Source: Eledone cirrhosa (lineage: Eukaryota). From it: DNA of 64,000 bases. A program made the translations under genes and the position numbers. The notes below the pieces were generated by a model, which saw only the letters and a list, made by a program, of their open reading frames with translations, was not told the origin of the DNA and did no database searches. The stretch covers positions 23,002,001 through 23,066,000 of the forward strand of contig OZ024765.1 of NCBI GenBank assembly GCA_964016885.1, given 5' to 3'. The first letter of the stretch is position 1. Every line of letters begins with the position of its first letter. Below, piece after piece: positions 16,308-60,732 of the stretch.

Positions 16308-18021
16308 CTCTTGACATCCTGTAATAATTTAATAGAAAATATCTGAAAATGGTTTTGTACTAAATGTTTATAGTATCTTTACTGGTGGACAGACTGTTGT
16401 GAATATTTACAGTATTACAGTAAAGACTTTAATATTTAATGTGATGTAGTCATAGTGTTGTTTTGTACTAAATGTTTATAGTATCTTTACTGGTGGACAG
16501 ATTGTTGTGAATATTTACAGTATTACAGTAAAGACTTTAATATTTAATGTGATGTAGTCATAGTGTTGTTTTGTACTAAATGTTTATAGTATCTTTACTG
16601 GTGGACAGATTGTTGTGAATATTTACAGTATTACAGTAAAGACTTTAATATTTAATGTGATGTAGTCATAGTGTTGTTTTGTACTAAATGTTTATAGTAT
16701 CTTTACTGGTGGACAGATTGTTGTGAATATTTACAGTATTACAGTAAAGACTTTAATATTTAATGTGATGTAGTCAGTGTTGTTTTGTACTAAATGTTTA
16801 TAGTATCTTTACTGGTGGACATATTGTTGTGAAAATTTACAGTATTACAGTAAAGACTTTAATATTTAATGTGATGTAGTCATAGTGTTGTTTTGTACTA
16901 AATGTTTATAGTATCTTTACTGGTGGACAGACTGTTGTGAATATTTACAGTATTACAGTAAAGACTTTAATATTTAATGTGATGTAGTCATAGTGTTGTT
17001 TTGTACTAAATGTTTATAGTATCTTTACTGGTGGACAGATTGTTGTGAATATTTACAGTATTACAGTAAAGACTATAATATTTAATGTGATGTAGTCATA
17101 GTGTTGTTTTGTACTAAATGTTTATAGTATCTTTACTGGTGGACAGATTGTTGTGAATATTTACAGTATTACAGTAAAGACTTTAATATTTAATGTGATG
17201 TAGTCATAGTGTTGTTTTGTACTAAATGTTTATAGTATCTTTACTGGTGGACAGATTGTTGTGAATATTTACAGTATTACAGTAAAGACTTTAATATTTA
17301 ATGTGATGTAGTCAGTGTTGTTTTGTACTAAATGTTTATAGTATCTTTACTGGTGGACATATTGTTGTGAAAATTTACAGTATTACAGTAAAGACTTTAA
17401 TATTTAATGTGATGTAGTCATAGTGTTGTTTTGTACTAAATGTTTATAGTATCTTTACTGGTGGACAGATTGTTGTGAATATTTACAGTATTACAGTAAA
17501 GACTTTAATATTTAATGTGATGTAGTCATAGTGTTGTTTTGTACTAAATGTTTATAGTATCTTTACTGGTGGACATATTGTTGTGAAAATTTACAGTATT
17601 ACAGTAAAGACTTTAATATTTAATATGATGTAGTCATAGTGTTGTTTTGTACTAAATGTTTATAGTATCTTTACTGGTGGACAGATTATTGTGAAAATTT
17701 ACAGTATTACAGTAAAGACTATAATATTTAATGTGATGTAGTCATAGTGTTGTTTTGTACTAAATGTTTATAGTATCTTTACTGGTGGATAGATTGTTGT
17801 GAATATTTACAGTATTACAGTAAAGACTTTAATATTTAATGTGATGTAGTCATAGTGTTGTTTTGTACTAAATGTTTATAGTATCTTTACTGGTAGACAG
17901 ATTGTTGTGAATATTTACAGTATTACAGTAAAGACTTTAATATTTAATGTGATATAGTCCCAGAGAAGTTTTGAATACTCAAGAATATCTTATTAATGCA
18001 TGCAGTACAGGATGTTAAGAT
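16308..18021. mobile_element. TTAA-flanked MITE-like element containing ~15 copies of a 108-bp internal tandem repeat
   Basis: ttaa|ctcttgacatcctgta ... tacaggatgttaagat|ttaa are imperfect TIRs with TTAA flanks (piggyBac-like); period 108 (16361, 16469, 16577). Confidence 0.75.
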
Positions 18022-23011: not shown

Positions 23012-26000
23012 TCATCATCATCATCATCATCGTTTAACGTCCATCTTCCATGCTTGCATGGGTTTGGACGGGAGTTTTCCCACTTGAGGCAAGAGTGGTT
23101 GTCTTGCTCGCATAGGACTGTCTGGCGGGTTTTCTACGGCTGGATGCCCTTCCTAACACCAACCACATTTACAGTGTGGGACTGGGAGGTTTTCACCGTG
23201 TTGCCTACACGGCCACATTACAGCGTGGACTGTCTGGCGGGTTTTCTACGGCTGGATGCCCTTCCTAACACCAACCACATTTACAGTGTGGAACTGGGAG
23301 GTTTTTACCGTGTTACCTACACGGCCACATTACAGCGTGGACTGTGTGTTTTTTTGTCGTGACACCTACACGACCTCATTTGTTTCGGGCTGGATGTTGT
23401 GGTACCAACATAACTTTACATTGAAAGGGCTGGTGTGGATGGGGTGGGGGTAGTGGGACGGGGGTGTATTTTTGTTAGAGGTGCCTACTGACTGTAGGTT
23501 TTGCTTTTTACTTAGGCCAGGTGGGTCTTCTCTATTACTGTGTACCACCAAAGATCTCGGTCCAGTGACATTGTCTTGGAGAAGTGTGTGAGGTCGGAAT
23601 TTATGAAATCGTGTCAGGTTTTTCTGGGTCTGCCTACTCCGTGGCTACCGTCTATTTTTATTGCCATACACTTTTTTATACAGCTGTTGTCTTTCATGCA
23701 CATCACATGACCATACCAATGTAGCCTTCTCTCGAGTAAACAACATCTGATCCCTCTTATTTCTTCTAATTTTTCCCTTAGTTCGTTTATGCTTTGCCGT
23801 TCACGTATATTACTATTACACATCCAGCGGAGCATGCAAGCTTCGTTCCTCTCCAGTCTGCGTATATCCTCTGCACACAATGCCCAGGTCTCACTGCCAT
23901 GTAACATTGCTGTTCGTATGCAGGCATCATACAGCCTGCCTTTCATTTTTAGAGAGAACCCTTTAGCGGCTAATAGAGGTATAAGCTCTCTGAACTTTTT
24001 CCATCCAGTTCTGACTCTGGCTACTGTACTTCCAGAGCACCCTCCCCCACTGCTGATTTTGTCACCCAGGTAACGGAAGGTGTCCACTATTTCCATAGAA
24101 CCATCTGTGCAATGGAATGAGCTAATATCCTGTGGGCACTTGCTGCTACTTATTGCACCAGAGCACCGGCCACATATAAAATCTATATCCTTAGTGATCC
24201 CACTACATCTTTTATGCACCCATACTTTGCATTTGGGACATAAAATGGAGTTTCTGCCTACTCCTTTCCTACACACTGAGCATGGCCATTTCCCGGATGG
24301 GACCGGTGCCCTATTTTCCTTCCTACAAACTAGAACTTTAGTCTTAGACAGGTTAATTTTAAGGACTTTTGATTCTAGGCCATGCTTCCATGTTTGGAAG
24401 TTCTTCTCTAGCTCGGCCATTGATTCAGCTATGAGCGTTAGATCATCTGCATATAGGAGTTCCCATGGGCAGCTGGTCTTGAACTCCTCTGTTATAGCCT
24501 GAAGGGCAATAATAAATAGGAGGGGGCTAAGAACGGAGCCCTGATGAACACCAACTTTTACGCTAAACTCTTCACTATATTCGTTGTTAATTCTAACCTT
24601 GCTGACTGTTTCTTTATACATGGCTTGTATAGCTTTCACAAGCCATTCATCAACACCTAGTTTTCTAAGAGCCCACCAGATAATGGAACGGTGGACTCTG
24701 TCAAAGGCTTTCTCCAAGTCGACAAAAGCTAAGTATAGGGGTTTACTTTTAGCTAGGTACTTCTCCTGTAGTTGTCGTACAATGAAAAGAGCGTCTGTGG
24801 TACTTTTACCTGACACAAACCCGAACTGCATTTCATCTAGATCAATTCGCTCTCTGATTAGTTGCGCTATTACTTTTTCTATGATCTTCATGACCTGGTC
24901 AATTAATTTAATGCCTCTATAGTTACCCCTATCTAGGGCATCTCCTTTACCCTTGTAGCAGTTAATGATGATGCTGCTACGCCAGTCCTTCGGAACAACC
25001 CCATGCTGTATGACTTGGTTTACTATGTGGGTGGCCATAGTGTGTCCCACCGTTCCAAAAGCTTTCAGCATTTCAGCCACTATTTCCGAAGGCCCAGCCG
25101 CCTTACCCGTCTTCATATCCTTGATTGCCTTACTTATTATACTACCTTCAACTAACACTCCTGGTCCCTCTATTGGATCGATGTGGGGCAGACTGTCTTT
25201 CTCCCATTTATTCTCCTCATTTAGTAGCCTCTCGTAGTAACACTTCCAAGTTACCTTCTTATCAGCGTCAGTGATGGCAAGTAGACCATCATCATTAAGG
25301 ACACACTTCTCCCTGACAATATCACGGTTTTCCTTGACACATTGCCTAGCAATCCTGAACACCTCACGTTTTTGGTCCTCGCATTGTAGAACATGCTGGA
25401 ACTTTCTTTCCTCTGCTTCCCCTCTTGCGAAGTACACTTGTCTCCTAGCTTGCCTCCTGGCCACTTGATAGTCTTCTCTACTTCCCCCATCCCGCCATAC
25501 TTTCCAAGCCTGCTTTTTGGCCTTAATTGACTCCTCCACCTTACTGTTCCACCACCACGTTACTCTCCTCCTGCCTATAGGCCTGCTCCAGCCACAGACT
25601 TCATCTGCCGCCATCAGCAGGTTTGCTTTCAGGAGATCCCACTGTTCCTCTATATTGTACGACTCTAATTGCTCTTCCTTACTGTCGAAAGCATCAAGTA
25701 ATATGCTTTTAAATTTATTACTGGCTGTGGGGTCCTTTAGCTTCCATATTTTTCTCCTGAGGATAGTCCTCTTCTGTTGTCGAGTACGTCTCGTCCTGAC
25801 TATGAGGTCGCTAATTATCAGTCTATGTTGGGAGGTGCATTCTTCATGGGGGAGGGATTTAGTGTTTACAACAGACACTCTGTCACGTCTTCTGGTAAGG
25901 ATATAATCTACCTGGCTGGTATGTTCCCCTGATCTGTAGGTGATCAGTGATTGTCTCATTTTTTGAAGTTAGTGTTTCTAGTACCAAACCCATAGCCTCT

Positions 26001-28387: not shown

Positions 28388-28434
<47 letters not shown>

Positions 28435-28476
28435 GATATTAAACAAATGGAAACTATATTTATAAAACCATATTTA

Positions 28477-28537
28477 TTTCATTATACATATTTCAGGGAT
28501 ACCATATTAAAATATGGCATGCCTTCGTCAGATAAAA
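28477..28537 (-). ncRNA. Type I hammerhead ribozyme (left arm of inverted repeat 28433-28758)
   Basis: Reverse complement of 28653-28713. Confidence 0.7.
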
Positions 28538-28652
28538 TACAATATATAAACAGTTTTATAAATAATTTTGACTATCCAGACAGCTTCCTAATATAATGGT
28601 CGCTTATATTATGGTACGTCAAAATTATTTATAAAACTGTTTATATATTGTA

Positions 28653-28713
28653 TTTTATCTGACGAAGGCATGCCATATTTTAATATGGTATCCCTGAAAT
28701 ATGTATAATGAAA
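28653..28713 (+). ncRNA. Type I hammerhead ribozyme
   Basis: Stem I ttttat/atgaaa; CTGACGA; stem II agg-c-atgccatatt/aatatggtat-c-cct; GAAA; near-palindromic stem III; predicted cleavage after ATA at 28707. Confidence 0.72.
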
Positions 28714-28843
28714 TAAATATGGTTTTATAAATATAGTTTCCATTTGTTTAATATCGTATATCTACTCCAAAAAATTTTCGAGTGCTTTATATCAGTTATA
28801 AAATATTTATTTGTTGTAACCCAACAATTTTAAATAAAACCTT

Positions 28844-28876
<33 letters not shown>

Positions 28877-29581: not shown

Positions 29582-29926
29582 ATATATATATAGTGAAATA
29601 AAATAACAAGGACGATTGGTTACTCCTTCATTACGTTTATTGGTAGGTGACGTGCGTTTCACCACTCATCAGCTCAAGGTTCGATCTGTATCGATCTGAC
29701 CTGACTCTGTAATCCGCGGCTCGTCAGACCCCTTATAATGGTAATACACTCTGTCTAGCTCTACACCTCGACACTGAAGTGAACCTAAATATTGAGTGCT
29801 CACCCGGGTGAACCTACAGTAACTCCAAGTTACACTCCATGGATATATATAGCAAAGAAAGTGTGGTAAGAAACCAGGTGGACCATAACCCACCAGAGTA
29901 CTTGATACTTATGGTAGTAGAGTGGG

Positions 29927-31691: not shown

Positions 31692-33159
31692 TAGAATTAA
31701 CAATGAATATTGTGAAGAATTTAGTGTAAAAGTTGGTGTTCATCAGGGCTCTGTCCTTAGCCCCCTCCTACTTACTATTGCCCTTCAGGCTATAACAGAG
31801 GAGCGTCAAGACCGGCTGCCCATGGGAACTCCTATACGCAGATGATCTAACGCTCATAGCTGGATCAATGGCTGAACTAGAGAAGAAATTCCAAACATGG
31901 AAGCATGGCCTAGAATCAAAAGGCCTTAAAGTTAACTTGTCTAAGACTAAAGTTCTAGTTTGTAGAAAGGAAAATAAGGCACTGGTACCCTCAGGGAAAT
32001 TGTCTTGCTCAGTGTGTAGGAAAGGAGTAGACAGAAATTCAATTTTATGTCCCAAATGCAAAGTATGGGTACATAAAAGATGTAGTGGGATCACAGGTAA
32101 ACTATCTAAGAATGTAGACTTTATATGTGGCCGATGCTCAGGTGCAATAAGTAGCAAGTGTCCACAGGATACTAGCTCCTTCTATTGCCCAGATGGTTCT
32201 ATAGAAATAGTAGACACTTTCCATTACCTGGGTGACAAAATCAGCAGTGGTGGAGGGTGCTCTGAAAGTACAGTAGCCAGAGTCAGAACGGGATGGAAAA
32301 AGTTCAGAGAGCTTATACCACTATTGGACGCTAAAGGGTTCTCTCTAAAAATGAAAGGCAGGCTGTATGATGCCTGCATACGAACAGCAATGTTACATGG
32401 CAGTGAGACATGGGCATTGTGTGCAGAGGATATACGCAGACTAGAGAGGAACGAAGCTTGCATGCTCTGTTGCATGTGTAATAGTAATATATGTGAACGG
32501 CAAAGCATAAATGAACTAAGTGAAAAATTAGGAATAAGAGGGATCAGATGTTGTTTACTTGAGAGAAGACTATGTTGGTATGGCCACGTGATGCGCATGA
32601 AAGACGACAGCTGTATAAAAAATGCAGGGAGATCAAAATTGATGGAAGTTACGGAGTAGGTAGACCCAGAAAAACCTGGGATGATCTGATAAATTCCGAC
32701 CTTACACACTTACATCTCTCTAAGGCAATGTCACTGGACCGAGATGTTTGGCACTACGCAGTAATACAGAAGACCCGCCTTGCCTAAGTACAAAGCAAAA
32801 CCTACAGTCAGTAGGCACCTCCTAACCAAAAATACACCCCCATCCCCATCTACACCACCCCTTTCGATGTAAAGTTATGTTGGTACCACAACATCCAGTC
32901 CGAAACAAATGAGGTCGTGTAGGTGTCACAACAAAAAACACACAGTCCACGCTGTAATGTGGCCGTGTAGGCAACACAGTAAAAACCTCCCAGTCCACAC
33001 TGTAAATGTGGTTGGTGTTAGGAAGGGCATCCAGCCGTAGAAAACCTGCCAGACAGTCCTATATGAGTGAGACACGGTTCAACCAACCTTGCCACAAGTG
33101 GGACAACTCCCGTATAACCCATGCTAACATGGGAGATGGACGTTAAATGATGATGATGA

Positions 33160-34985: not shown

Positions 34986-35924
34986 CTACTGCACCAAATG
35001 ACCAGCCCTGTCCACTGTCCAGTTGGTCAAGTAGAGATTAAAATCGGCACCCCCAAAATTCTTATTTAGATTTACTCATGGTATTCTCATTAAAAACCCA
35101 TTATATACTTGTTTAGCAGTAAATTGAATTACCATCTGTCATATACTATCCCCTCTCTCCTTACTCTATTACTAATATAAATACTTCAATTTTTCTGATT
35201 TTATCCAGTTTATCCAAAATCTCTGAAGAAGTGACAACTGATTATACATTTGCTATCGAATACTTGCTAACATTATATGATTACGCAAGCAGCGATACAT
35301 AGGTATTCCGTCTGTTACAGAAACATATGTCAATACCTAATAAATTCCTTTTTTAACAAAAGCACTTTCATTTTATATTCATCCTTTCTACATTTCTCCG
35401 GAATATAATTTATACTCGTTGAGCAAACCTACACGTACGCTGTTCATCTCTAACGTAACGATATATTATCACTACATTATTGATAACCTGAAATTTTATT
35501 GTATATATATATATGTATATATATATATATGTATATATGTATGTATATATGTATATATATATATATGTATATATGTATGTATATATGTATATATATATAT
35601 GTATATATGTATGTATATATATATATGTATATATATATGTTGTTATACTTTGGGAGGGTCATGTTGCCAATTATTGGCAACATGACCCTCCCAAAGTATA
35701 ACAATATCGGTTTCAACACACAATTTCAGATAAAGAATCTTGCTAAACAAATTCAGAAACGAAATATATATATATGTATATATATATATATATGTATATA
35801 TATATGTATATATATATATATGTGAATATAGACATAGAATATTCGAGAATATTCTGTATGTTTATAATAAACATTTTGAAGACCTAATCGCTATAGAATA
35901 GAATACGTCACGTATTACAATTAG

Positions 35925-36013
35925 ATTCTCGATAAAAGCAAGGGAAGTAATCTACGCGTTTCATTCTCGTTAGAAATCATCAGGACTACATATCCAGTGC
36001 TTTTATCGAGAAT
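35925..36013 (-). ncRNA. Type I hammerhead ribozyme (copies also at 36235-36323, 36545-36633, 36855-36943)
   Basis: Reverse complement of 37221-37309. Confidence 0.85.
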
Positions 36014-37220
36014 GACACAGCTAGAGACTTATAGAATACTTAGCTGTGTACAGGAACTGGTTTGAAAGAGCGGTTGCCGGTCCGGCAGAAATTAGAAATT
36101 GGAATAAATGCTCTGAAATAGCGATATATATGTGAATATAGACATAGAATATTCGAGAATATTCTGTATGTTTATAATAAACATTTTGAAGACCTAATCG
36201 CTATAGAATAGAATACGTCACGTATTACAATTAGATTCTCGATAAAAGCAAGGGAAGTAATCTACGCGTTTCATTCTCGTTAGAAATCATCAGGACTACA
36301 TATCCAGTGCTTTTATCGAGAATGACACAGCTAGAGACTTATAGAATACTTAGCTGTGTACAGGAACTGGTTTGAAAGAGCGGTTGCCGGTCCGGCAGAA
36401 ATTAGAAATTGGAATAAATGCTCTGAAATAGCGATATATATGTGAATATAGACATAGAATATTCGAGAATATTCTGTATGTTTATAATAAACATTTTGAA
36501 GACCTAATCGCTATAGAATAGAATACGTCACGTATTACAATTAGATTCTCGATAAAAGCAAGGGAAGTAATCTACGCGTTTCATTCTCGTTAGAAATCAT
36601 CAGGACTACATATCCAGTGCTTTTATCGAGAATGACACAGCTAGAGACTTATAGAATACTTAGCTGTGTACAGGAACTGGTTTGAAAGAGCGGTTGCCGG
36701 TCCGGCAGAAATTAGAAATTGGAATAAATGCTCTGAAATAGCGATATATATGTGAATATAGACATAGAATATTCGAGAATATTCTGTATGTTTATAATAA
36801 ACATTTTGAAGACCTAATCGCTATAGAATAGAATACGTCACGTATTACAATTAGATTCTCGATAAAAGCAAGGGAAGTAATCTACGCGTTTCATTCTCGT
36901 TAGAAATCATCAGGACTACATATCCAGTGCTTTTATCGAGAATGACACAGCTAGAGACTTATAGAATACTTAGCTGTGTACAGGAACTGGTTTGAAAGAG
37001 CGGTTGCCGGTCCGGCAGAAATTAGAAATTGGAATAAATGCTCTGAAATAGCGATATATATGTGAATATAGACATAGAATATTCGAGAATATTCTGTATG
37101 TTTATAATAAACATTTTGAAGACCTAATCGCTATAGAATAGAATACGTCACGTATTACAAACGCTCTTTCAAACCAGTTCCTGTACACAGCTAAGTATTC
37201 TATAAGTCTCTAGCTGTGTC

Positions 37221-37309
37221 ATTCTCGATAAAAGCACTGGATATGTAGTCCTGATGATTTCTAACGAGAATGAAACGCGTAGATTACTTCCCTTGCTTTT
37301 ATCGAGAAT
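37221..37309 (+). ncRNA. Type I hammerhead ribozyme (copies also at 37531-37619, 37841-37929)
   Basis: Stem I gtagtc/gattac with a distal 16-bp attctcgataaaagca/tgcttttatcgagaat; CTGATGA at 37251-37257; stem II ttct/agaa; GAAAC; palindromic stem III ACGCGT; predicted cleavage after GTA at 37281. Confidence 0.88.
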
Positions 37310-38111
37310 CTAATTGTAATACGTGACGTATTCTATTCTATAGCGATTAGGTCTTCAAAATGTTTATTATAAACATACAGAATATTCTCGAATATTCTAT
37401 GTCTATATTCACATATATATCGCTATTTCAGAGCATTTATTCCAATTTCTAATTTCTGCCGGACCGGCAACCGCTCTTTCAAACCAGTTCCTGTACACAG
37501 CTAAGTATTCTATAAGTCTCTAGCTGTGTCATTCTCGATAAAAGCACTGGATATGTAGTCCTGATGATTTCTAACGAGAATGAAACGCGTAGATTACTTC
37601 CCTTGCTTTTATCGAGAATCTAATTGTAATACGTGACGTATTCTATTCTATAGCGATTAGGTCTTCAAAATGTTTATTATAAACATACAGAATATTCTCG
37701 AATATTCTATGTCTATATTCACATATATATCGCTATTTCAGAGCATTTATTCCAATTTCTAATTTCTGCCGGACCGGCAACCGCTCTTTCAAACCAGTTC
37801 CTGTACACAGCTAAGTATTCTATAAGTCTCTAGCTGTGTCATTCTCGATAAAAGCACTGGATATGTAGTCCTGATGATTTCTAACGAGAATGAAACGCGT
37901 AGATTACTTCCCTTGCTTTTATCGAGAATCTAATTGTAATACGTGACGTATTCTATTCTATAGCGATTAGGTCTTCAAAATGTTTATTATAAACATACAG
38001 AATATTCTCGAATATTCTATGTCTATATTCACATATATATCGCTATTTCAGAGCATTTATTATATATATATATGTATGTATATATATGTATATATGTATA
38101 TATATATGTAT

Positions 38112-42929: not shown

Positions 42930-43385
42930 CGTTAATTCTAACGTTTTGTAATATTACAGTAAAGACTTTAATATTTAATGTGGTGTAGTCATAGTGTGGT
43001 TTTGTACTAAATGTTTATAGTATCTTTACTAGTGGACATATTGTGAATATTTACAGTATTACAGTAAAGACTTTAATATTGAATGTGATGTAGTCATAGT
43101 GTTGTTTTGTACTAAATGTTTATAGTATCTCTACTGGTGGACATATTGTTGTGAATATTTACAGTATTACAGTAAAGACTTTAATATTGAATGTGATGTA
43201 GTCATAGTGTTGTTTTGTACTAAATGTTTATAGTATCTTTACTAGTGGACATATTGTTGTGAATATTTACAGTATTACAGTAAAGACTTTAATATTGAAT
43301 GTGATGTAGTCATAGTGTTGTTTTGTACTCCTCAAGAATGTCTTGCCAATGTAGTCTCCTGAGGTACAGGTCATTAAGAATTAAT
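42930..43385. mobile_element. 108-bp-repeat MITE-like family copy (~3.5 units)
   Basis: Same unit and a similar 3' flank (ctcaagaatgtctt...gtacagg...ttaagaattaa) to 16308-18021. Confidence 0.72.
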
Positions 43386-45372: not shown

Positions 45373-45397
45373 AATGTATATATATATATATATGTGG

Positions 45398-45434
<37 letters not shown>

Positions 45435-45500
45435 AATGTATATATATATATATATATGTGGATGTATATATATATGTGGATATATATATATATATATATA

Positions 45501-47115
45501 TAACAGAGGAGTTCAAGACCGGCTGCCCATGGGAACTCCTATACGCAGATGATCTAACGCTCATAGCTGAATCAATGACCGAACTAGAGAAGAAATTCCA
45601 AACGTGGAAGCACGGCCTAGAATCAAAAGGCCTTAAAATTAACCTGTCTAAGACTAAAGTTCTAGTTTGTAGGAAAGAAAATAAGGCGGCGGTCCCATCG
45701 GGGAAATGGCCATGCTCAGTGTGTAGGAAAGGCGTAGGTAGAAACTCCATTTTATGTCCCAAATGCAAAGTATGGGTGCATAAAAGATGTAGTGGGATCA
45801 CAGGTAAGCTAACTAAGAACATAGATTTTACATGTGGCCGGTGCTCTGGTGCAATAAGTAGCAGCAAGTGCCCACAAAATACTAGCTCCTTCAACTGCGC
45901 AGAGGGTTCTATAGAAATAGTGGACAGCGTCCGTTATCTGGGTGACAAAATCAGCAGTGGGGGAGGGTGCTCTGAAAGTACAGTAGCTAGAGTCAGAACT
46001 GGATGGAAAAAGTTCAGAGAGCTTATACCACTATTAGCCGCTAGAGGGTTCTCCCTAAAAATGAAAGGCAGGTTATACGATGCCTGCATACGAACAGCAA
46101 TGCTGCATGGCAGTGAGACCTGGGCATTGTGTGCAGAGGATATACGCAGACTAGAGAGGAACGAAGCTTGCATGCTCCGCTGGATGTGCAATAGTAATAT
46201 ACGTGAACGGCAAAGCATAAACGAACTAAGGAAAAAATTAGAAATAAGAGGGATCAGATGTTGTTTACTCGAGAGAAGGCTACGTTGGTACGGTCACGTG
46301 ATGCGCATGAAAGACGACAGCTGTATAACAAAGTGCAGGGCAATAAAGATAGACGGTAGCCACGGAGTAGGCAGACCCAGAAAAACATGGGACGAGCTGA
46401 TAAATTCCGACCTCACACGCTTACACCTCTCCAAGACAATGTCACTGGACCGAGACCTTTGGCGGTACTCAGTAATAGAGAAGACCCGCCTTACCTAAAT
46501 ACAAAGTAAAAACCTACTACAGTCAGTAGGCATCTCTATCAAAACACACCCCCGTCCCACCACCCTCCACCCCACCCACACCGCCCCTTTCAATGTAAAG
46601 TTATGTTGGTCCCACAACATCCAGGCCGAAACAAATGAGATCGTGTAGGTGTCACGACAAAAACACACAGTCCACGCTGTAAATGTGGCCGTGTAGGCAA
46701 CACGGTAAAAACCTCCCAGCCCCACACTGTAAATGTGGTTGGTGTTAGGAAGGGCATCCAGCTGTAGAAAACCCGCCAGACAGTCCACGCTGTAATGTGG
46801 CCGTGTAGGCAACACGGTAAAAACCTCCCAGCCCCACACTGTAAATGTGGTTGGTGTTAGGAAGGGCATCCAGCTGTAGAAAACCCGCCAGACAGTCCAT
46901 GCTGTAATGTGGCCGTGTAGGCAACACGGTAAAAACCTCCCAGCCCCACACTGTAAATGTGGTTGGTGTTAGGAAGGGCATCCAACTGTAGAAAACCCGC
47001 CAGACAGTCCTATGCGAGCAAGACAACCACTCTTGCCTCAAGTGGGAAAACCCCCGTCCAAACCCATGCAAGCGTGGAACACGGACGCTAAACCTGATGA
47101 TGATGATGATGATGA
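45501..47115 (+). mobile_element. RTE LINE 5'-truncated copy (subfamily A) with a 112-bp 3'UTR segment in three copies
   Basis: Open frame from [18 protein letters not shown] to EKTRLT*; 3'UTR period 112 (46781, 46893); (GAT)n tail. Confidence 0.93.
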
Positions 47116-50782: not shown

Positions 50783-51704
50783 GTGAGTACTCTATATTGA
50801 ACCTATTTTCATATCAAACTCCCTGATTCTGGTGCGCTGGGTGCTTTTTGTCGTGAGACCTACACGATCACTTTACTGTGTGGGCTGGATGTTCTTTACA
50901 GTGTGGACTGGGCACCTTTGTTGTGTCACTGACACAACACAGTGGGGACTAGGGAGGGTGGAGGGGCTTGGGGGAAAAACGATGTGGACAGGGTAGTAGG
51001 GGAGGTATGGTTACCGCTAGGGGAGGTGGATGAGAGGGGATAGAAGGTTGAGGAAGGTGCTGCCTACTAGGTGTAAGCCTCATTCCAAGAACAATAGAAG
51101 GCGGGTTGGGTTGCAATGTCAATGGCGCCAGGCTGTGTCGGCCTTTGTCTTTTGTGTAAAAGACATGGCAAAAAGCACCCAATACATACTGTTAATGTGG
51201 TTGGCATCCAGCAGTAGAATACCAGCCAGAAAAACCCCTACATGAGCGAGGCATGGTCATCCGACCAAACTTGCCTCTAAATGGAACCCATCTAACCCAT
51301 GCTAGCGTGGAAGATGGACGTTAATCGATGATGATGATGATGATGATGATATATAGACACAATGCATCGCCAGGTTCGGGAATCGAACTCACAACCTCAC
51401 GATTGCGAATCCAATTCTCTTAGTCAGCCACGCACCTTCACAAATATGTGAAGCAGGGCAAAGCGGACGTAAAAATGATGTAAGATGTAATATATATATA
51501 TTTATATATTATTCCGAATATTGGTGTTAGGAAGGGCATCCAGCTGTAGAAAACCCGCCAGACAGTCCTATGCGAGCAAGACAACCACTCTTGCCTCAAG
51601 TGGGAAAACCCCCGTCCAAACCCATGCAAGCGTGGAACACGGACGCTAAACCTGATGATGATGATGATTAATAAATGAAGACATTCACATAATCAAAATA
51701 TATG

Positions 51705-51766
51705 TTTTATTATATATATTTCGAAGGTACTGTGCTGTTTTTTCAGTACGTCCTCGTCAGATAAAA
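51705..51766 (-). ncRNA. Type I hammerhead ribozyme (left arm of inverted repeat ~51668-51938)
   Basis: Reverse complement of 51839-51900 with two stem II changes that preserve pairing. Confidence 0.72.
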
Positions 51767-51838
51767 TACATGAATTGATATATGACATACCTCAGCTGTC
51801 TTGATGGTTCAATTCCAGTATCGGCAATACTGGAATTA

Positions 51839-51900
51839 TTTTATCTGACGAGGGCGTACTGAAAAAACAGCACAGTACCTCCGAAATATATATAATAAAA
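51839..51900 (+). ncRNA. Type I hammerhead ribozyme
   Basis: ttttat CTGACGA ggg-c-gtactg...cagtac-c-tcc GAAA tatat ATA ataaaa; palindromic stem III. Confidence 0.78.
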
Positions 51901-52220
51901 CATATATTTTGATTATGTGAATGTCTTCATTTATTAATATTTTGAATAATATTAATAACTCCAGAAAATTTCACTGTAGAGTGCTTTTAATCTATTGTAA
52001 AACTATCTTCATTGAGTAATCAATGAACCATATTAATCTTTGGTTATATATATATAATGGAGTTGTGGTAAGGAACTAGGTGGACCATAACGCACCAGAG
52101 TACTCAATACTTAGGGTAGTAGAGTGGGTAATAGGAAAAAGTTTAACCCCGACGGCAGAGCTCAAGTTCAGAAGTAGCCGTCGAAACGGCTTGAGCTCTG
52201 CTGTCGGGGTTAAACTTTTT

Positions 52221-52255
<35 letters not shown>

Positions 52256-52321
52256 AGGTAAAACTTGAACTGTTAAGATCTCGTTCCTGGTTATGTCAAT
52301 ATTTATAAAACAAACTTTGTA

Positions 52322-52378
52322 TTTTATCTGATGAGAGCGTACCAAAGTTTTGGTACCCTTGAAATATATATAATAGAA
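52322..52378 (+). ncRNA. Type I hammerhead ribozyme
   Basis: ttttat CTGATGA gag-c-gtaccaaa/tttggtac-c-ctt GAAA tatat ATA atagaa. Confidence 0.78.
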
Positions 52379-52638
52379 TAAATATGGTTTTATAAATATA
52401 GTTTCCATTTATTTAATATCATTGTATATATATATATATATGCAAACGTTTTGTTTATAAAATACAATATATAAACAGTTTTATAAATAATTTTGACGTA
52501 GGTAAAGGTATGTCTTTTAGAGAAGAAGAGATCTTAAAGAATTCCATTTTTTCAGTTATAATGTAAAGCACTCAACAATACTTATAAAACTGTTTATATA
52601 TTGTATTTTATAAATAAAACTTTTGCATATATTTTGCT

Positions 52639-53527
52639 CCCATTTATTTAATATCGTATATCTACTCCAAAAACTTGTCGAGTGCTTTATATCAGTTATA
52701 AAATATGAAATAAATATGGTTTTATAAATATAGTTTCCATTTGTTTAATATCGTATATCTACTCCAAAAACTTGTCGAGTGCTTTATATCAGTTATAAAA
52801 TATGAAATAAATATGGTTTTATAAATATAGTTTCCATTTATTTAATATCGTATATCTACTCCAAAAACTTGTCGAGTGCTTTATATCAGTTATAAAATAT
52901 GAAATAAATATGGTTTTATAAATATAGTTTCCATTTATTTAATATCGTATATCTACTCCAAAAACTTGTCGAGTGCTTTATACAGTTATAAAATATGAAA
53001 TAAATATGGTTTTATAAATATAGTTTCCATTTATGTAATATCGTATATCTACTCCAAAAACTTGTCGAGTGCTTTATATCAGTTATAAAATATGAAATAA
53101 ATATGGTTTTATAAATATAGTTTCCATTTATTTAATATCGTATATCTACTCCAAAAACTTGTCGAGTGCTTTATATCAGTTATAAAATATGAAATAAATA
53201 TGGTTTTATAAATATAGTTTCCATTTATTTAATATCGTATATCTACTCCAAAAACTTGTCGAGTGCTTTATACAGTTATAAAATATGAAATAAATATGGT
53301 TTTATAAATATAGTTTCCATTTATGTAATATCGTATATCTACTCCAAAAACTTGTCGAGTGCTTTATATCAGTTATAAAATATGAAATAAATATGGTTTT
53401 ATAAATATAGTTTCCATTTATTTAATATCGTATATCTACTCCAAAAACTTGTCGAGTGCTATATATCAGTTATAAAATATGAAATAAATATGGTTTTATA
53501 AATATAGTTTCCATTTATTTAATATCG

Positions 53528-53530
<3 letters not shown>
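52639..53530 (+). repeat. 97-bp tandem array, ~9 copies, homologous to 28708-28804
   Basis: Period 97 (52661, 52758, 52855). Confidence 0.92.
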
Positions 53531-53558
<28 letters not shown>

Positions 53559-53744: not shown

Positions 53745-53905
53745 ACATGGTGACTGTATTTCCCTCCAAATCTGATGACTCCACTGTGATTGTCAACGCT
53801 GATGGTATTTATGTCACTTCCATCGCTGTCCTCTCACTTAACCTGAAGTTGTCTGTGAAGAACTTCTATAAACCAGAATTCCAGGGAAAAGTTCTCGTCA
53901 CGGAG
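53745..53905 (+). CDS. ARFGEF3: ARFGEF3/BIG3 coding exon
   Basis: attcag|ACATG...ACGGAG|gtaatc; 161 nt, DMVTVFPSKSDDSTVIVNADGIYVTSIAVLSLNLKLSVKNFYKPEFQGKVLVTE (cf. MNADSLY...LLLNLKLS). Confidence 0.85.
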
Positions 53906-54039: not shown

Positions 54040-54196
54040 GAGCAGTTTGTAGACAATGTCCTTAACAGTGGCTTGGTCGTGTTTCTGTCAACAACTTGGC
54101 TCAATGAGGTCTATAAACAGATTCTAGCAACTGACCTCCTCCACAACGCTGGATACCACTTTGATGATGAATCACCTCTTATTTCAATGCTTACAG
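54040..54196 (+). CDS. ARFGEF3: ARFGEF3/BIG3 coding exon
   Basis: ttacag|GAG...CTTACAG|gtaaac; 157 nt, EQFVDNVLNSGLVVFLSTTWLNEVYKQILATDLLHNAGYHFDDESPLISMLT (cf. PLITMLTDIDGL). Confidence 0.92.
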
Positions 54197-57100
54197 GTAA
54201 ACATTAAGACTTAACTTACAGGTAAACATTAAGACTTAACTTACAGGTAAACATTAAGACCTAACTTACAGGTAAACATTAAGACTTAACTTACAGGTAA
54301 ACATTAAGACTTAACTTACAGGTAAACATTAAGACCTAACTTACAGGTAAACATTAAGACTTAACTTACAGGTAAACATTAAGACTTAACTTACAGGTAA
54401 ACATTAAGACTTAACTTACAGGTAAACATTAAGACTTAACTTACAGGTAAACATTAAGACTTAACTTACAGGTAAACATTAAGACTTAACTTACAGGTAA
54501 ACATTAAGACTTAACTTACAGGTAAACATTAAGACTTAACTTACAGGTAAACATTAAGACCTAACTTACAGGTAAACATTAAGACTTAACTTACAGGTAA
54601 ACATTAAGACCTAACTTACAGGTAAACATTAAGACTTAACTTACAGGTAAACATTAAGACCTAACTTACAGGTAAACATTAAGACTTAACTTACAGGTAA
54701 ACATTAAGACTTAACTTACAGGTAAACATTAAGACTTAACTTACAGGTAAACATTAAGACTTAACTTACAGGTAAACATTAAGACTTAACTTACAGGTAA
54801 ACATTAAGACCTAACTTACAGGTAAACATTAAGACTTAACTTACAGGTAAACATTAAGACCTAACTTACAGGTAAACATTAAGACTTAACTTACAGGTAA
54901 ACATTAAGACCTAACTTACAGGTAAACATTAAGACTTAACTTACAGGTAAACATTAAGACTTAACTTACAGGTAAACATTAAGACTTAACTTACAGGTAA
55001 ACATTAAGACCTAACTTACAGGTAAACATTAAGACTTAACTTACAGGTAAACATTAAGACCTAACTTACAGGTAAACATTAAGACTTAACTTACAGGTAA
55101 ACATTAAGACTTAACTTACAGGTAAACATTAAGACTTAACTTACAGGTAAACATTAAGACCTAACTTACAGGTAAACATTAAGACCTAACTTACAGGTAA
55201 ACATTAAGACCTAACTTACAGGTAAACATTAAGACTTAACTTACAGGTAAACATTAAGACCTAACTTACAGGTAAACATTAAGACTTAACTTACAGGTAA
55301 ACATTAAGACTTAACTTACAGGTAAACATTAAGACTTAACTTACAGGTAAACATTAAGACTTAACTTACAGGTAAACATTAAGACTTAACTTACAGGTAA
55401 ACATTAAGACCTAACTTACAGGTAAACATTAAGACTTAACTTACAGGTAAACATTAAGACCTAACTTACAGGTAAACATTAAGACTTAACTTACAGGTAA
55501 ACATTAAGACTTAACTTACAGGTAAACATTAAGACCTAACTTACAGGTAAACATTAAGACTTAACTTACAGGTAAACATTAAGACTTAACTTACAGGTAA
55601 ACATTAAGACTTAACTTACAGGTAAACATTAAGACTTAACTTACAGGTAAACATTAAGACTTAACTTACAGGTAAACATTAAGACCTAACTTACAGGTAA
55701 ACATTAAGACCTAACTTACAGGTAAACATTAAGACTTAACTTACAGGTAAACATTAAGACTTAACTTACAGGTAAACATTAAGACTTAACTTACAGGTAA
55801 ACATTAAGACTTAACTTACAGGTAAACATTAAGACTTAACTTACAGGTAAACATTAAGACTTAACTTACAGGTAAACATTAAGACTTAACTTACAGGTAA
55901 ACATTAAGACTTAACTTACAGGTAAACATTAAGACTTAACTTACAGGTAAACATTAAGACCTAACTTACAGGTAAACATTAAGACCTAACTTACAGGTAA
56001 ACATTAAGACCTAACTTACAGGTAAACATTAAGACTTAACTTACAGGTAAACATTAAGACCTAACTTACAGGTAAACATTAAGACTTAACTTACAGGTAA
56101 ACATTAAGACTTAACTTACAGGTAAACATTAAGACTTAACTTACAGGTAAACATTAAGACTTAACTTACAGGTAAACATTAAGACTTAACTTACAGGTAA
56201 ACATTAAGACCTAACTTACAGGTAAACATTAAGACTTAACTTACAGGTAAACATTAAGACCTAACTTACAGGTAAACATTAAGACTTAACTTACAGGTAA
56301 ACATTAAGACTTAACTTACAGGTAAACATTAAGACCTAACTTACAGGTAAACATTAAGACTTAACTTACAGGTAAACATTAAGACTTAACTTACAGGTAA
56401 ACATTAAGACTTAACTTACAGGTAAACATTAAGACTTAACTTACAGGTAAACATTAAGACTTAACTTACAGGTAAACATTAAGACTTAACTTACAGGTAA
56501 ACATTAAGACTTAACTTACAGGTAAACATTAAGACTTAACTTACAGGTAAACATTAAGACTTAACTTACAGGTAAACATTAAGACTTAACTTACAGGTAA
56601 ACATTAAGACTTAACTTACAGGTAAACATTAAGACTTAACTTACAGGTAAACATTAAGACCTAACTTACAGGTAAACATTAAGACTTAACTTACAGGTAA
56701 ACATTAAGACCTAACTTACAGGTAAACATTAAGACTTAACTTACAGGTAAACATTAAGACTTAACTTACAGGTAAACATTAAGACCTAACTTACAGGTAA
56801 ACATTAAGACTTAACTTACAGGTAAACATTAAGACTTAACTTACAGGTAAACATTAAGACTTAACTTACAGGTAAACATTAAGACTTAACTTACAGGTAA
56901 ACATTAAGACCTAACTTACAGGTAAACATTAAGACTTAACTTACAGGTAAACATTAAGACTTAACTTACAGGTAAACATTAAGACTTAACTTACAGGTAA
57001 ACATTAAGACTTAACTTACAGGTAAACATTAAGACCTAACTTACAGGTAAACATTAAGACTTAACTTACAGGTAAACATTAAGACTTAACTTACAGGTAA

Positions 57101-59359
57101 ACATTAAGACTTAACTTACAGGTAAACATTAAGACTTAACTTACAGGTAAACATTAAGACTTAACTTACAGGTAAACATTAAGACCTAACTTACAGGTAA
57201 ACATTAAGACTTAACTTACAGGTAAACATTAAGACTTAACTTACAGGTAAACATTAAGACTTAACTTACAGGTAAACATTAAGACTTAACTTACAGGTAA
57301 ACATTAAGACTTAACTTACAGGTAAACATTAAGACTTAACTTACAGGTAAACATTAAGACTTAACTTACAGGTAAACATTAAGACTTAACTTACAGGTAA
57401 ACATTAAGACCTAACTTACAGGTAAACATTAAGACTTAACTTACAGGTAAACATTAAGACTTAACTTACAGGTAAACATTAAGACTTAACTTACAGGTAA
57501 ACATTAAGACTTAACTTACAGGTAAACATTAAGACTTAACTTACAGGTAAACATTAAGACTTAACTTACAGGTAAACATTAAGACTTAACTTACAGGTAA
57601 ACATTAAGACCTAACTTACAGGTAAACATTAAGACTTAACTTACAGGTAAACATTAAGACTTAACTTACAGGTAAACATTAAGACTTAACTTACAGGTAA
57701 ACATTAAGACCTAACTTACAGGTAAACATTAAGACTTAACTTACAGGTAAACATTAAGACTTAACTTACAGGTAAACATTAAGACTTAACTTACAGGTAA
57801 ACATTAAGACCTAACTTACAGGTAAACATTAAGACTTAACTTACAGGTAAACATTAAGACTTAACTTACAGGTAAACATTAAGACCTAACTTACAGGTAA
57901 ACATTAAGACCTAACTTACAGGTAAACATTAAGACTTAACTTACAGGTAAACATTAAGACTTAACTTACAGGTAAACATTAAGACTTAACTTACAGGTAA
58001 ACATTAAGACCTAACTTACAGGTAAACATTAAGACTTAACTTACAGGTAAACATTAAGACTTAACTTACAGGTAAACATTAAGACTTAACTTACAGGTAA
58101 ACATTAAGACTTAACTTACAGGTAAACATTAAGACTTAACTTACAGGTAAACATTAAGACCTAACTTACAGGTAAACATTAAGACTTAACTTACAGGTAA
58201 ACATTAAGACTTAACTTACAGGTAAACATTAAGACTTAACTTACAGGTAAACATTAAGACTTAACTTACAGGTAAACATTAAGACTTAACTTACAGGTAA
58301 ACATTAAGACTTAACTTACAGGTAAACATTAAGACTTAACTTACAGGTAAACATTAAGACCTAACTTACAGGTAAACATTAAGACTTAACTTACAGGTAA
58401 ACATTAAGACTTAACTTACAGGTAAACATTAAGACTTAACTTACAGGTAAACATTAAGACCTAACTTACAGGTAAACATTAAGACTTAACTTACAGGTAA
58501 ACATTAAGACTTAACTTACAGGTAAACATTAAGACTTAACTTACAGGTAAACATTAAGACTTAACTTACAGGTAAACATTAAGACTTAACTTACAGGTAA
58601 ACATTAAGACTTAACTTACAGGTAAACATTAAGACCTAACTTACAGGTAAACATTAAGACTTAACTTACAGGTAAACATTAAGACTTAACTTACAGGTAA
58701 ACATTAAGACTTAACTTACAGGTAAACATTAAGACTTAACTTACAGGTAAACATTAAGACTTAACTTACAGGTAAACATTAAGACCTAACTTACAGGTAA
58801 ACATTAAGACCTAACTTACAGGTAAACATTAAGACTTAACTTACAGGTAAACATTAAGACCTAACTTACAGGTAAACATTAAGACTTAACTTACAGGTAA
58901 ACATTAAGACTTAACTTACAGGTAAACATTAAGACTTAACTTACAGGTAAACATTAAGACTTAACTTACAGGTAAACATTAAGACCTAACTTACAGGTAA
59001 ACATTAAGACTTAACTTTCAGGTAAACATTAAGACTTAACTTTCAGGTAAACATTAAGACTTAACTTTCAGGTAAACATTAAGACTTAACTTTCAGATAA
59101 ACATTAAGACTTAACTTTCAGATAAACATTAAGACTTAACTTTCAGGTAAACATTAAGACTTAACTTACAGGTAAACATTAAGACTTAACTTACAGGTAA
59201 ACATTAAGACTTAACTTACAGGTAAACATTAAGACTTAACTTTCAGGTAAACATTAAGACTTAACTTTCAGGTAAACATTAAGACTTAACTTACAGTTAA
59301 ACATTAAGACTTAACTTAGAGGTAAACATTAAGACCTAACTTAGAGGTAAACATTAAGA
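54190..59359 (+). repeat. 25-bp tandem array, ~207 copies, spanning the exon/intron junction (cttacag|gtaaacattaagac(t/c)taa)
   Basis: The first unit overlaps the last 7 nt of exon 54040-54196 and its donor. Confidence 0.97.
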
Positions 59360-59399
59360 TTTACAGGACATTGACTTAAGTTACCACTAATTGTTACAA

Positions 59400-59775
59400 T
59401 GATGCAGTCATAATGCAGTTTTGTACTCTTTAAGAATGTTTAGCTGATTTGGTTTCATGGGGCTTGTTAATTCAAATGTTTGTAGTATCTTTATTAATGG
59501 ACAGGTTACTGTAACTATTTGCTGTGTTAAATTAAAGACTTTAATATTTAATGTGATGTAGTCATAGTGTTGTTTTGTAGTAAATGTTTATAGTATCTTT
59601 ACTGGTGGACAGATTGTTGTGAAAATTCACAGTATTACAGTAAAGACTTTAATATTTAATATGATGTAGTCATAGTGTTGTTTTGTACTCTTCTAGATTG
59701 TCTAGCTGATGTGGTTTCATGGGGTTTGTTAGTTCAAATGTTTGTAGTATCTTTACTAATGGACATATTGTTTTC
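59400..59775. repeat. Degenerate 108-bp-repeat family copy
   Basis: Contains taaagactttaatatttaat(g/a)tgatgtagtcatagtgttgttttgta units. Confidence 0.75.
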
Positions 59776-60087: not shown

Positions 60088-60732
60088 TTAACTCTTAACA
60101 TTCTGTAATGATTTAGCAGAAAATATCTAAAAACAAGTTTGTAAATTCAAATGTTTATAGTATCTTTACTGGTAGACAGATTGTTGTGAATATTTACAGT
60201 ATTACAGTAAAGACTTTAATATTTAATGTGATGTAGTCATAGTGTTGTTTTGTACTAAATGTTTATAGTATCTTTACTGGTGGACAGACTGTTGTGAAAA
60301 TTTACAGTATTACAGTAAAGACTTTAATATTTAATGTGATGTAGTCATAGTGTTGTTTTGTACTAAATGTTTATAGTATCTTTACTGGTGGACAGATTGT
60401 TGTGAATATTTACAGTATTACAGTAAAGACTTTAATATTTAATGTGATGTAGTCATAGTGTTGTTTTGTACTAAATGTTTATAGTATCTTTACTGGTGGA
60501 CAGACTGTTGTGAAAATTTACAGTATTACAGTAAAGACTTTAATATTTAATGTGATGTAGTCATAGTGTTGTTTTGTACTAAATGTTTATAGTATCTTTA
60601 CTAGTGGACATATTGTTGTGAATATTTACAGTATTACAGTAAAGACTTTAATATTTAAGGTGATGTAGTCATAGTGTTGTTTTGTATTTCTCAAGAATGT
60701 CTTATTGATGTGGTACAGAACTCTAATAGTTA
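60088..60732. mobile_element. 108-bp-repeat MITE-like family copy (~5 units)
   Basis: 5' flank ttaactcttaacattctgtaat matches the 16304 end; same unit; similar 3' flank. Confidence 0.75.

Follow-up and report, generated by a model that had tools for sequence, protein, structure and literature searches.

A core-less 97-bp tandem array in Eledone cirrhosa, probably brought in by a Penelope-type insertion, with a unit boundary on a predicted hammerhead cleavage site

Within a 64,000-nucleotide stretch of the Eledone cirrhosa genome (the window, by which we mean the whole stretch of DNA analysed), a tandem array at 52639..53532 on the plus strand is built from a segment of a short two-armed element that carries a predicted hammerhead ribozyme, and the repeated segment starts at the first base past the predicted cut. 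The question that the locus raises is whether cleavage by the ribozyme fixed the boundary of the repeat, or whether a junction made in some other way meets the cut by chance. At stake is what the hammerhead does in Penelope-like elements.

Tandem Repeats Finder gives the array a period of 97, 9.2 copies and 98% matches. Unit composition and comparisons with the parent and among junctions resolve it into eight full units that stand between a partial unit on the left (66 nt) and another on the right; the units start at 52705, 52802, 52899, 52995, 53092, 53189, 53285, 53382 and 53479 (n = 9). The parent segment, 28708..28804 on the plus strand, has its first base just past the predicted cut and extends into the element's tail; the units are 96–98% identical to parent positions 28708-28806 over 99 nt. 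All nine junctions are identical, each equivalent to a join of parent position 28804 to 28708, with no microhomology to the left and 2 nt of it (AT) to the right, so that 28708, 28709 and 28710 are all possible starts of the unit. A preliminary description of this DNA had matched the unit to the sequence right after the cut and had noted the AT ambiguity, and both observations are borne out. It had also placed a core-less array close to a related hammerhead, and this is what we find: motif scans detect no hammerhead core in the array (0/8 full units), and the predicted cut of the hammerhead with its core at 52328 (after 52372) lies 267 bp before it. Lacking a core, the array cannot cut itself and is a by-product rather than a ribozyme satellite.

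In the parent, a motif scan and an alignment place a minimal type I hammerhead at 28651..28715 (+), with its core from 28659, an 8-bp helix I, a short, palindromic and TA-rich helix III, and a predicted cut at 28707/28708, a position assigned by the standard hammerhead rule. A mirror copy in the left arm, found by motif and inverted-repeat scans, occupies 28475..28539 (-), with a predicted cut after 28483. In all, the motif scan finds five cores in the window, at 28659 (+), 28531 (-), 51845 (+), 51760 (-) and 52328 (+), with predicted cuts, in the same order, after 28707, 28483, 51894, 51711 and 52372, and CUGANGA, GAAA and UH stand in type I order in all five. In an alignment of the five copies (four distinct sequences) 97.4% of cells are paired, against 36–63% for slid partners, a comparison that favours itself to some degree, the structure having been drawn by hand from the same four distinct sequences. 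Five of the eight pairs of helix II have changed on both sides across three subfamilies, with a covariation score reached by 2 of 500 shuffles; the pairs counted in helix III show no variation. Rfam gave no hammerhead match at the gathering score and none among matches down to E = 1, and the matches that it did return, hairpin look-alikes such as microRNA precursors, were rejected. A relaxed scan added one weak hammerhead-like match at 29649-29727 (-), with a 60-nt helix II region and a 4-bp helix I, which may be due to chance. Taken as a sequence-based structural prediction, the parent hammerhead is credible, and it resembles those described for Penelope pseudo-LTRs, which have a long helix II and a tiny palindromic helix III and cleave weakly, probably as dimers (PMC4209133, in its available text).

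The parent itself is a two-armed, head-to-head insertion in (TA)n at 28432..28847, with arms identical at 140/140 positions. Its left arm ends at a point that we call end A, and its right arm continues through a tail of about 85 nt to a putative second outer end, B; the tail occupies 28762..28847 (+), from end A (28761) to end B (~28847), and is predicted to fold into three hairpins. The point from which the array junction departs, 28804-28806, falls between the second and third of these predicted hairpins, in a linker that the model leaves only about half unpaired. A diverged two-armed relative at 51667..52046 (arms 100/102 identical; hammerheads at 51760 (-) and 51845 (+)) has a short left arm ending near A and a long right arm reaching B, so that both head-to-head insertions in the window pair a short arm with a long one. 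At 52254..52429 (+), its motif and a comparison of copies identify a lone arm that belongs to a sister subfamily; it contains the 52328 core and ends at A in (TA)n. The last member, at 52441..52632, is a core-less, MITE-like two-armed derivative (arms 56/61 identical) whose arms each carry the pre-hammerhead segment up to the very point at which the core would start and continue directly with the final ~15 nt of the tail. It abuts the array through an 8-nt unexplained filler. That 52441-53532 might be one two-armed insertion was considered but not relied on, because the shared arm parts differ at 5/61 positions, against 0/140 and 2/102 in the clear cases. The tail end and the pre-hammerhead segment are weakly similar (p = 0.04 and 0.12 by shuffles), a similarity to which we gave no weight. 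End B was placed from the window copies (28847, 52046, 52441, 52632). Another short two-armed insert in the cluster, a 36-bp inverted repeat with a 23-nt spacer at 52131-52225, adjoins a TA tract.

Insertions of the family in the window are flanked by (TA)n, and insertions into TA tracts are heaped up in this region. Penelope elements are marked by inverted arms, a tail and AT-rich targets (Craig et al., 2021, PMC8557442; PMC3846280), and the tail of such elements has been described as the stretch between two reverse-transcription start sites (Frangieh et al., 2024; PMC11167929). By most of the features tested, the parent is a short, non-autonomous Penelope-type pseudo-LTR element. The pseudo-LTR insertions described in the available parts of PMC4209133, PMC8557442 and PMC11167929 share with it the minimal type I hammerhead with a long helix II and a palindromic helix III, head-to-head arms, AT-rich or (TA)n targets and partial tandems, and also a tail between two outer ends if end B is genuine; the parent differs in that no coding part was seen and in its longer tail (~85 nt against 30–40). 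A domain scan of 12 frames from the window gave three matches to reverse transcriptase (RT) plus PHD and no GIY-YIG. The RT frames followed by a PHD finger, at 23614-25968 (-), 31796-32659 (+) and 45374-46498 (+), are one long and two truncated and likely belong to a LINE family. A search with a 22-nt pattern of the parent family gave no viral matches, and its one metagenome match, in a bacterial-looking coding sequence, was set aside as a chance match.

How the array came to its present place is best read from its right end. The last partial unit runs from the cut-equivalent position at 53479 to end A, 51 nt past the last junction, and (TA)13 follows, the whole occupying 53479..53553 (+); the short arm at 28432 ends in the same manner. 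That end A is a genuine outer end of the family is seen in three raw RAD runs mapped to 28573-28846, with 34400, 37141 and 41826 reads, numbers that mark the parent as a high-copy family: loose (TA)n ends behind 28761 occur in 6380/34400, 7588/37141 and 9381/41826 reads and make A the commonest outer end. A read pile-up at 28829 was considered as a second fixed end and dropped, since it falls on an AATT site and could be a product of the library enzyme. GCATGC or AATT sites underlie the pile-ups at 28829, 28626, 28669/28672 and 28679 (a variant site at 28679), and reads also begin at a GCATGC site in helix II, a pattern that fits what we take to have been a two-enzyme RAD library. Such a library under-samples arms beginning at the cut, because these have no enzyme site. 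The right side of the array is thus the end of an ordinary insertion. Followed as the cDNA would be synthesised, the sequence first breaks exactly at the position equivalent to the cut. Ending as it does at the outer end of the family next to (TA)n, the array appears to have arrived by reverse transcription, and to this extent the RNA-templated birth proposed in the preliminary description is supported by the sequence.

The second part of that proposal, reverse transcription of unit after unit, is not needed. An exact duplication of 290 bp (52802-53091 = 53092-53381, 290/290 identical) occupies 52802..53381 (+), so that units 2-4 equal units 5-7, with an exact run of 425 nt at a lag of 290. 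Units 3 and 6 share a 1-nt deletion and units 4 and 7 share a T>G change, and the probability of two such recurrences among six independent changes is 0.0004. Because the block is exact and the changes recur, at least 3/8 full units were added by block duplication at the level of DNA, barring a trimer template or an error of assembly, and RNA copying of every unit is accordingly unnecessary. A G in unit 1, missing from the other units, is a natural allele of the family (15229/17524 reads in run X12).

Unrelated tandem arrays are numerous in this window, among them 25 bp x 207, 41 bp x 53 and 24 bp x 129. The 25-bp array, at 54190-59363, starts where a likely exon (54040-54195) ends, and each of its units seems to repeat the splice donor; this exon and a second likely one at 53745-53905 would belong to a gene beside the 97-bp array. 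At 35814-38061, between TA-rich tracts, a 310-bp unit forms a pair of inverted arrays with 4.3 and 2.9 copies, in which the hammerhead scans found no core; two of the units, when compared, agree at 310/310 positions. A 108-bp unit forms four arrays, at 16352-17959, 42952-43329, 59474-59687 and 60149-60686, about 86-99% alike and without TA flanks, and these represent a dispersed tandem family.

The whole array might then have been a matter of DNA only: a deletion in a head-to-tail dimer would have removed the tail end and the core, slippage or unequal exchange would have expanded the remainder, and the match to the cut would be chance. The growth seen in the 290-bp block and the abundance of unrelated arrays speak for such an event, as do the neighbour at 52441-52632, which shows that core-removing deletions do occur in the family, and the absence of the junction from the listed contig pieces of three runs (below), as expected of a one-off event. 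The first junction is harder to obtain in this way. It has 2 nt of microhomology only, while 50 of the 8267 possible junction classes have at least 5 nt. A random junction from the tail to the 5' part is compatible with 28708 in 1.5% of cases when breakpoints are weighted uniformly over these classes and in 0.8–3.3% under four other weightings, figures that must be read in the knowledge that the coincidence of junction and cut was picked after the fact, from one locus. Moreover, the core of the upstream copy in the dimer leaves no trace: there is no core left of the array. DNA slippage, which the preliminary description had held out as the alternative, therefore accounts well for copy number and poorly for the first junction, and we regard a pure DNA event as unlikely.

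If the cut made the first junction, other junctions in the family might be expected to gather there, as the preliminary description had anticipated, and the reads are mostly against this. We considered 15 of the 34 joints listed, together with three from table 5c. Among these, the six tandem joints land at 28625, 28701, 28703, 28724, 28726 and 28751, none (0/6) on 28708-28710. Twelve joints are between opposite strands (head-to-head), seven of them involving a fixed inner point at 28609, and one of their 16 variable endpoints is exactly 28708, without microhomology; the chance of one such exact endpoint is about 10% among the 16 and 4% among the six variable partners of 28609. The arm end at 28708 recurs in all three raw runs (27, 34 and 67 reads, with one start), and we read this as one independent locus with an arm cut off exactly at the predicted site.

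The same joints give weight to another possibility, in which a Penelope-type cDNA was primed at, or joined to, the helix III TA run and AAT of another copy, bordering the cut by chance, and was then duplicated as DNA. The TA run plus AAT resembles the insertion target of the element itself, and this opens a third possible route to the junction. Two of the six tandem joints among those listed fall within helix III, short of the cut by 5 and 7 nt (28758>28701 and 28748>28703), with donors at or near end A. There are only seven AAT sites in 28609-28750, the array junction sits on one of them and the cut borders the TA run; under a model with AAT as target, the chance of the array junction falling at the cut comes closer to 1 in 7. 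For the enzyme of the anole, a preference for 5'-ATT-3' within AT-rich DNA and cutting of its own pseudo-LTR have been reported (PMC11167929), and the TA tracts here are crowded with insertions. However, the junction keeps no base of helix III, 28804-28806 is not a listed start site, and the target preference, borrowed from the anole enzyme, may apply here only by analogy. This route also needs an added deletion, because the core of the older copy should persist to the left of the array and does not. Overall we consider a join independent of the cut to be somewhat improbable, yet nearly as likely as a jump from a cut RNA end; pure DNA deletion is less so.

A further reading would have most of the array made in a single insertion. 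Either an RNA circle of 97 nt, closed by ligation between the cut 5' end and a break at 28804, or one short RNA on which the enzyme realigned repeatedly, would have given about six units at once, and block duplication would have added three. The nine identical junctions, and an array that begins mid-unit and stops at end A, are like the product of rolling copying, and the unit keeps end A and two hairpins without end B, the arm ending at A being the only one clearly present. RtcB circularises hammerhead products (Cervera and de la Pena, 2020; PMC7229834), and for R2 it has been proposed that the 5' ends of templates are ligated to other RNA before being copied into cDNA (PMC11371274). Against this, the ribozyme explains only one end of the circle, microhomology of at least 2 nt is found in 10% of the 8267 classes and is to that degree a coincidence, and the natural family allele in unit 1 would need a later change if a single small circle had been copied.

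Nor does the unit behave as an abundant template. Four runs were mapped to one unit with the junction in its middle, with a filter that drops records. No piece bridging the junction appears among the 24 of 2948 contig pieces listed for X1, X4 and X5, the longest of which covers 52 nt, and none of the best 15 of 48 joints listed lands on the array junction. Counts at the last base before the junction, which are upper bounds on bridging, are 153 reads in X12, a summed depth of 37 in X1 and none in X4 or X5, against about 11,900 reads (X12) and a depth of 466,000 (X1) just upstream. The 97-bp unit is therefore not an abundant dispersed family in those samples, and the window holds one array of it, with no second locus seen. 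Joints that go back within the unit are expected from parent reads mapped to a permuted unit and say nothing about arrays. Back-splicing was rejected as the origin of the junction, which has no splice-site letters. The circle or repeated realignment seems to us improbable.

A more general form of this idea we rate equally low. The hammerhead cut would be a fixed 5' boundary of the template, and the Penelope reverse transcriptase, a relative of telomerase, would either realign by two bases or roll round a 97-nt circle half made by the ribozyme, giving a ribozyme-free satellite in one insertion. Satellites of ordinary appearance could in that case be fossils of self-cleaved RNA, and the genome would bear witness that Penelope hammerheads cut in the germ line and that the cut RNA serves as a template.

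Our tentative preference is for a single jump from the ribozyme-cut end of an RNA, followed by amplification of the array as DNA. What the sequence shows is that the unit corresponds to the part of the element past the cut and that the array stops at A, next to (TA)n. From this starting point, a Penelope-type enzyme would nick a TA tract and prime at A, with the 3' cleavage product as its template, so that the cDNA would stop at 28708 after ~54 nt. The cDNA end would then re-prime at 28805-28806 by means of the 2-nt match (AT), either on that RNA or on a second molecule, and leave a short head-to-tail repeat. Slippage or unequal exchange, seen for the one 290-bp block and presumably acting for the rest, would have brought this to 9.2 units. 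The jump explains at once why the array ends at A, why its boundary is exact, why so little microhomology is seen and why no core stands to the left; a 2-nt match is compatible with a re-priming clamp, and the missing core is unlike the outcome of simple self-insertion, which would leave one. Several things count against a jump from the cut end. The tandem joints are scattered, with 0/6 on the cut among those listed, and the donor point 28804-28806 lies outside the listed ends of the family. Cleavage by minimal hammerheads is inefficient (Cervera and de la Pena, 2014; PMC4209133), and for the Penelope-type enzyme studied in vitro the available text of PMC11167929 reports uncut RNA as the dominant substrate, a hammerhead that is dispensable for insertion, and RNA-seq with no reads beginning or ending at the cut. 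That the cut made the first junction is plausible, with the probabilities for and against it about evenly balanced. One array and one truncated locus, set against scattered joints elsewhere, make a lead and not a demonstration.

Several known systems come close to this array. Partial tandems occur among Penelope pseudo-LTRs, as noted above; the array differs in being a tandem of a core-less sub-segment with its boundary on the predicted cut, whereas uncut RNA is the main in vitro substrate in those elements. The non-LTR retrozymes of animals and the newt-type ribozyme satellites (PMC7229834; Li, Clavereau and Pollet, 2026, 10.64898/2026.07.22.740005) are likewise tandem arrays derived from a Penelope pseudo-LTR-like hammerhead element. 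The 97-bp unit falls within the 51-972 bp reported for them, and local amplification of pseudo-LTR sequence into tandem repeats has already been proposed in the latter work. As these sources describe them, however, retrozymes carry a hammerhead in every unit, a defining feature that the array lacks, and without it the array, unlike retrozymes, could release no monomers and regenerate no circles by itself; a dispersed family of the unit was also not seen among the contig pieces listed. In R2 elements, junctions reflect the cut of the HDV-like ribozyme, some of them as tandem duplications of a length that fits the cut (PMC3774820), and R2 proteins jump between templates (PMC11371274, where RNA ligation before copying is proposed as well). 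R2 and the present array would share a ribozyme-made RNA 5' end in genomic junctions and re-priming by microhomology. The enzyme class and the ribozyme are different, though, and the R2 duplications described are of 13–28 nt of target rDNA, not of a 97-bp element segment grown to an array. Truncated insertions and mutation of tandem repeats form the general background (PMC9977147, in part). Among the openly accessible papers listed in our literature searches, none was seen to describe a core-less Penelope array bounded by the cut.

Should the lead hold, junctions in the genome that fall on the cut would preserve, like fossils, the copying of cleaved RNA in the germ line, and would reveal a route by which satellites arise that have lost the ribozyme. 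With a family of such high copy number, whether templates are cut in vivo becomes a question that can be answered by counting in one assembly.
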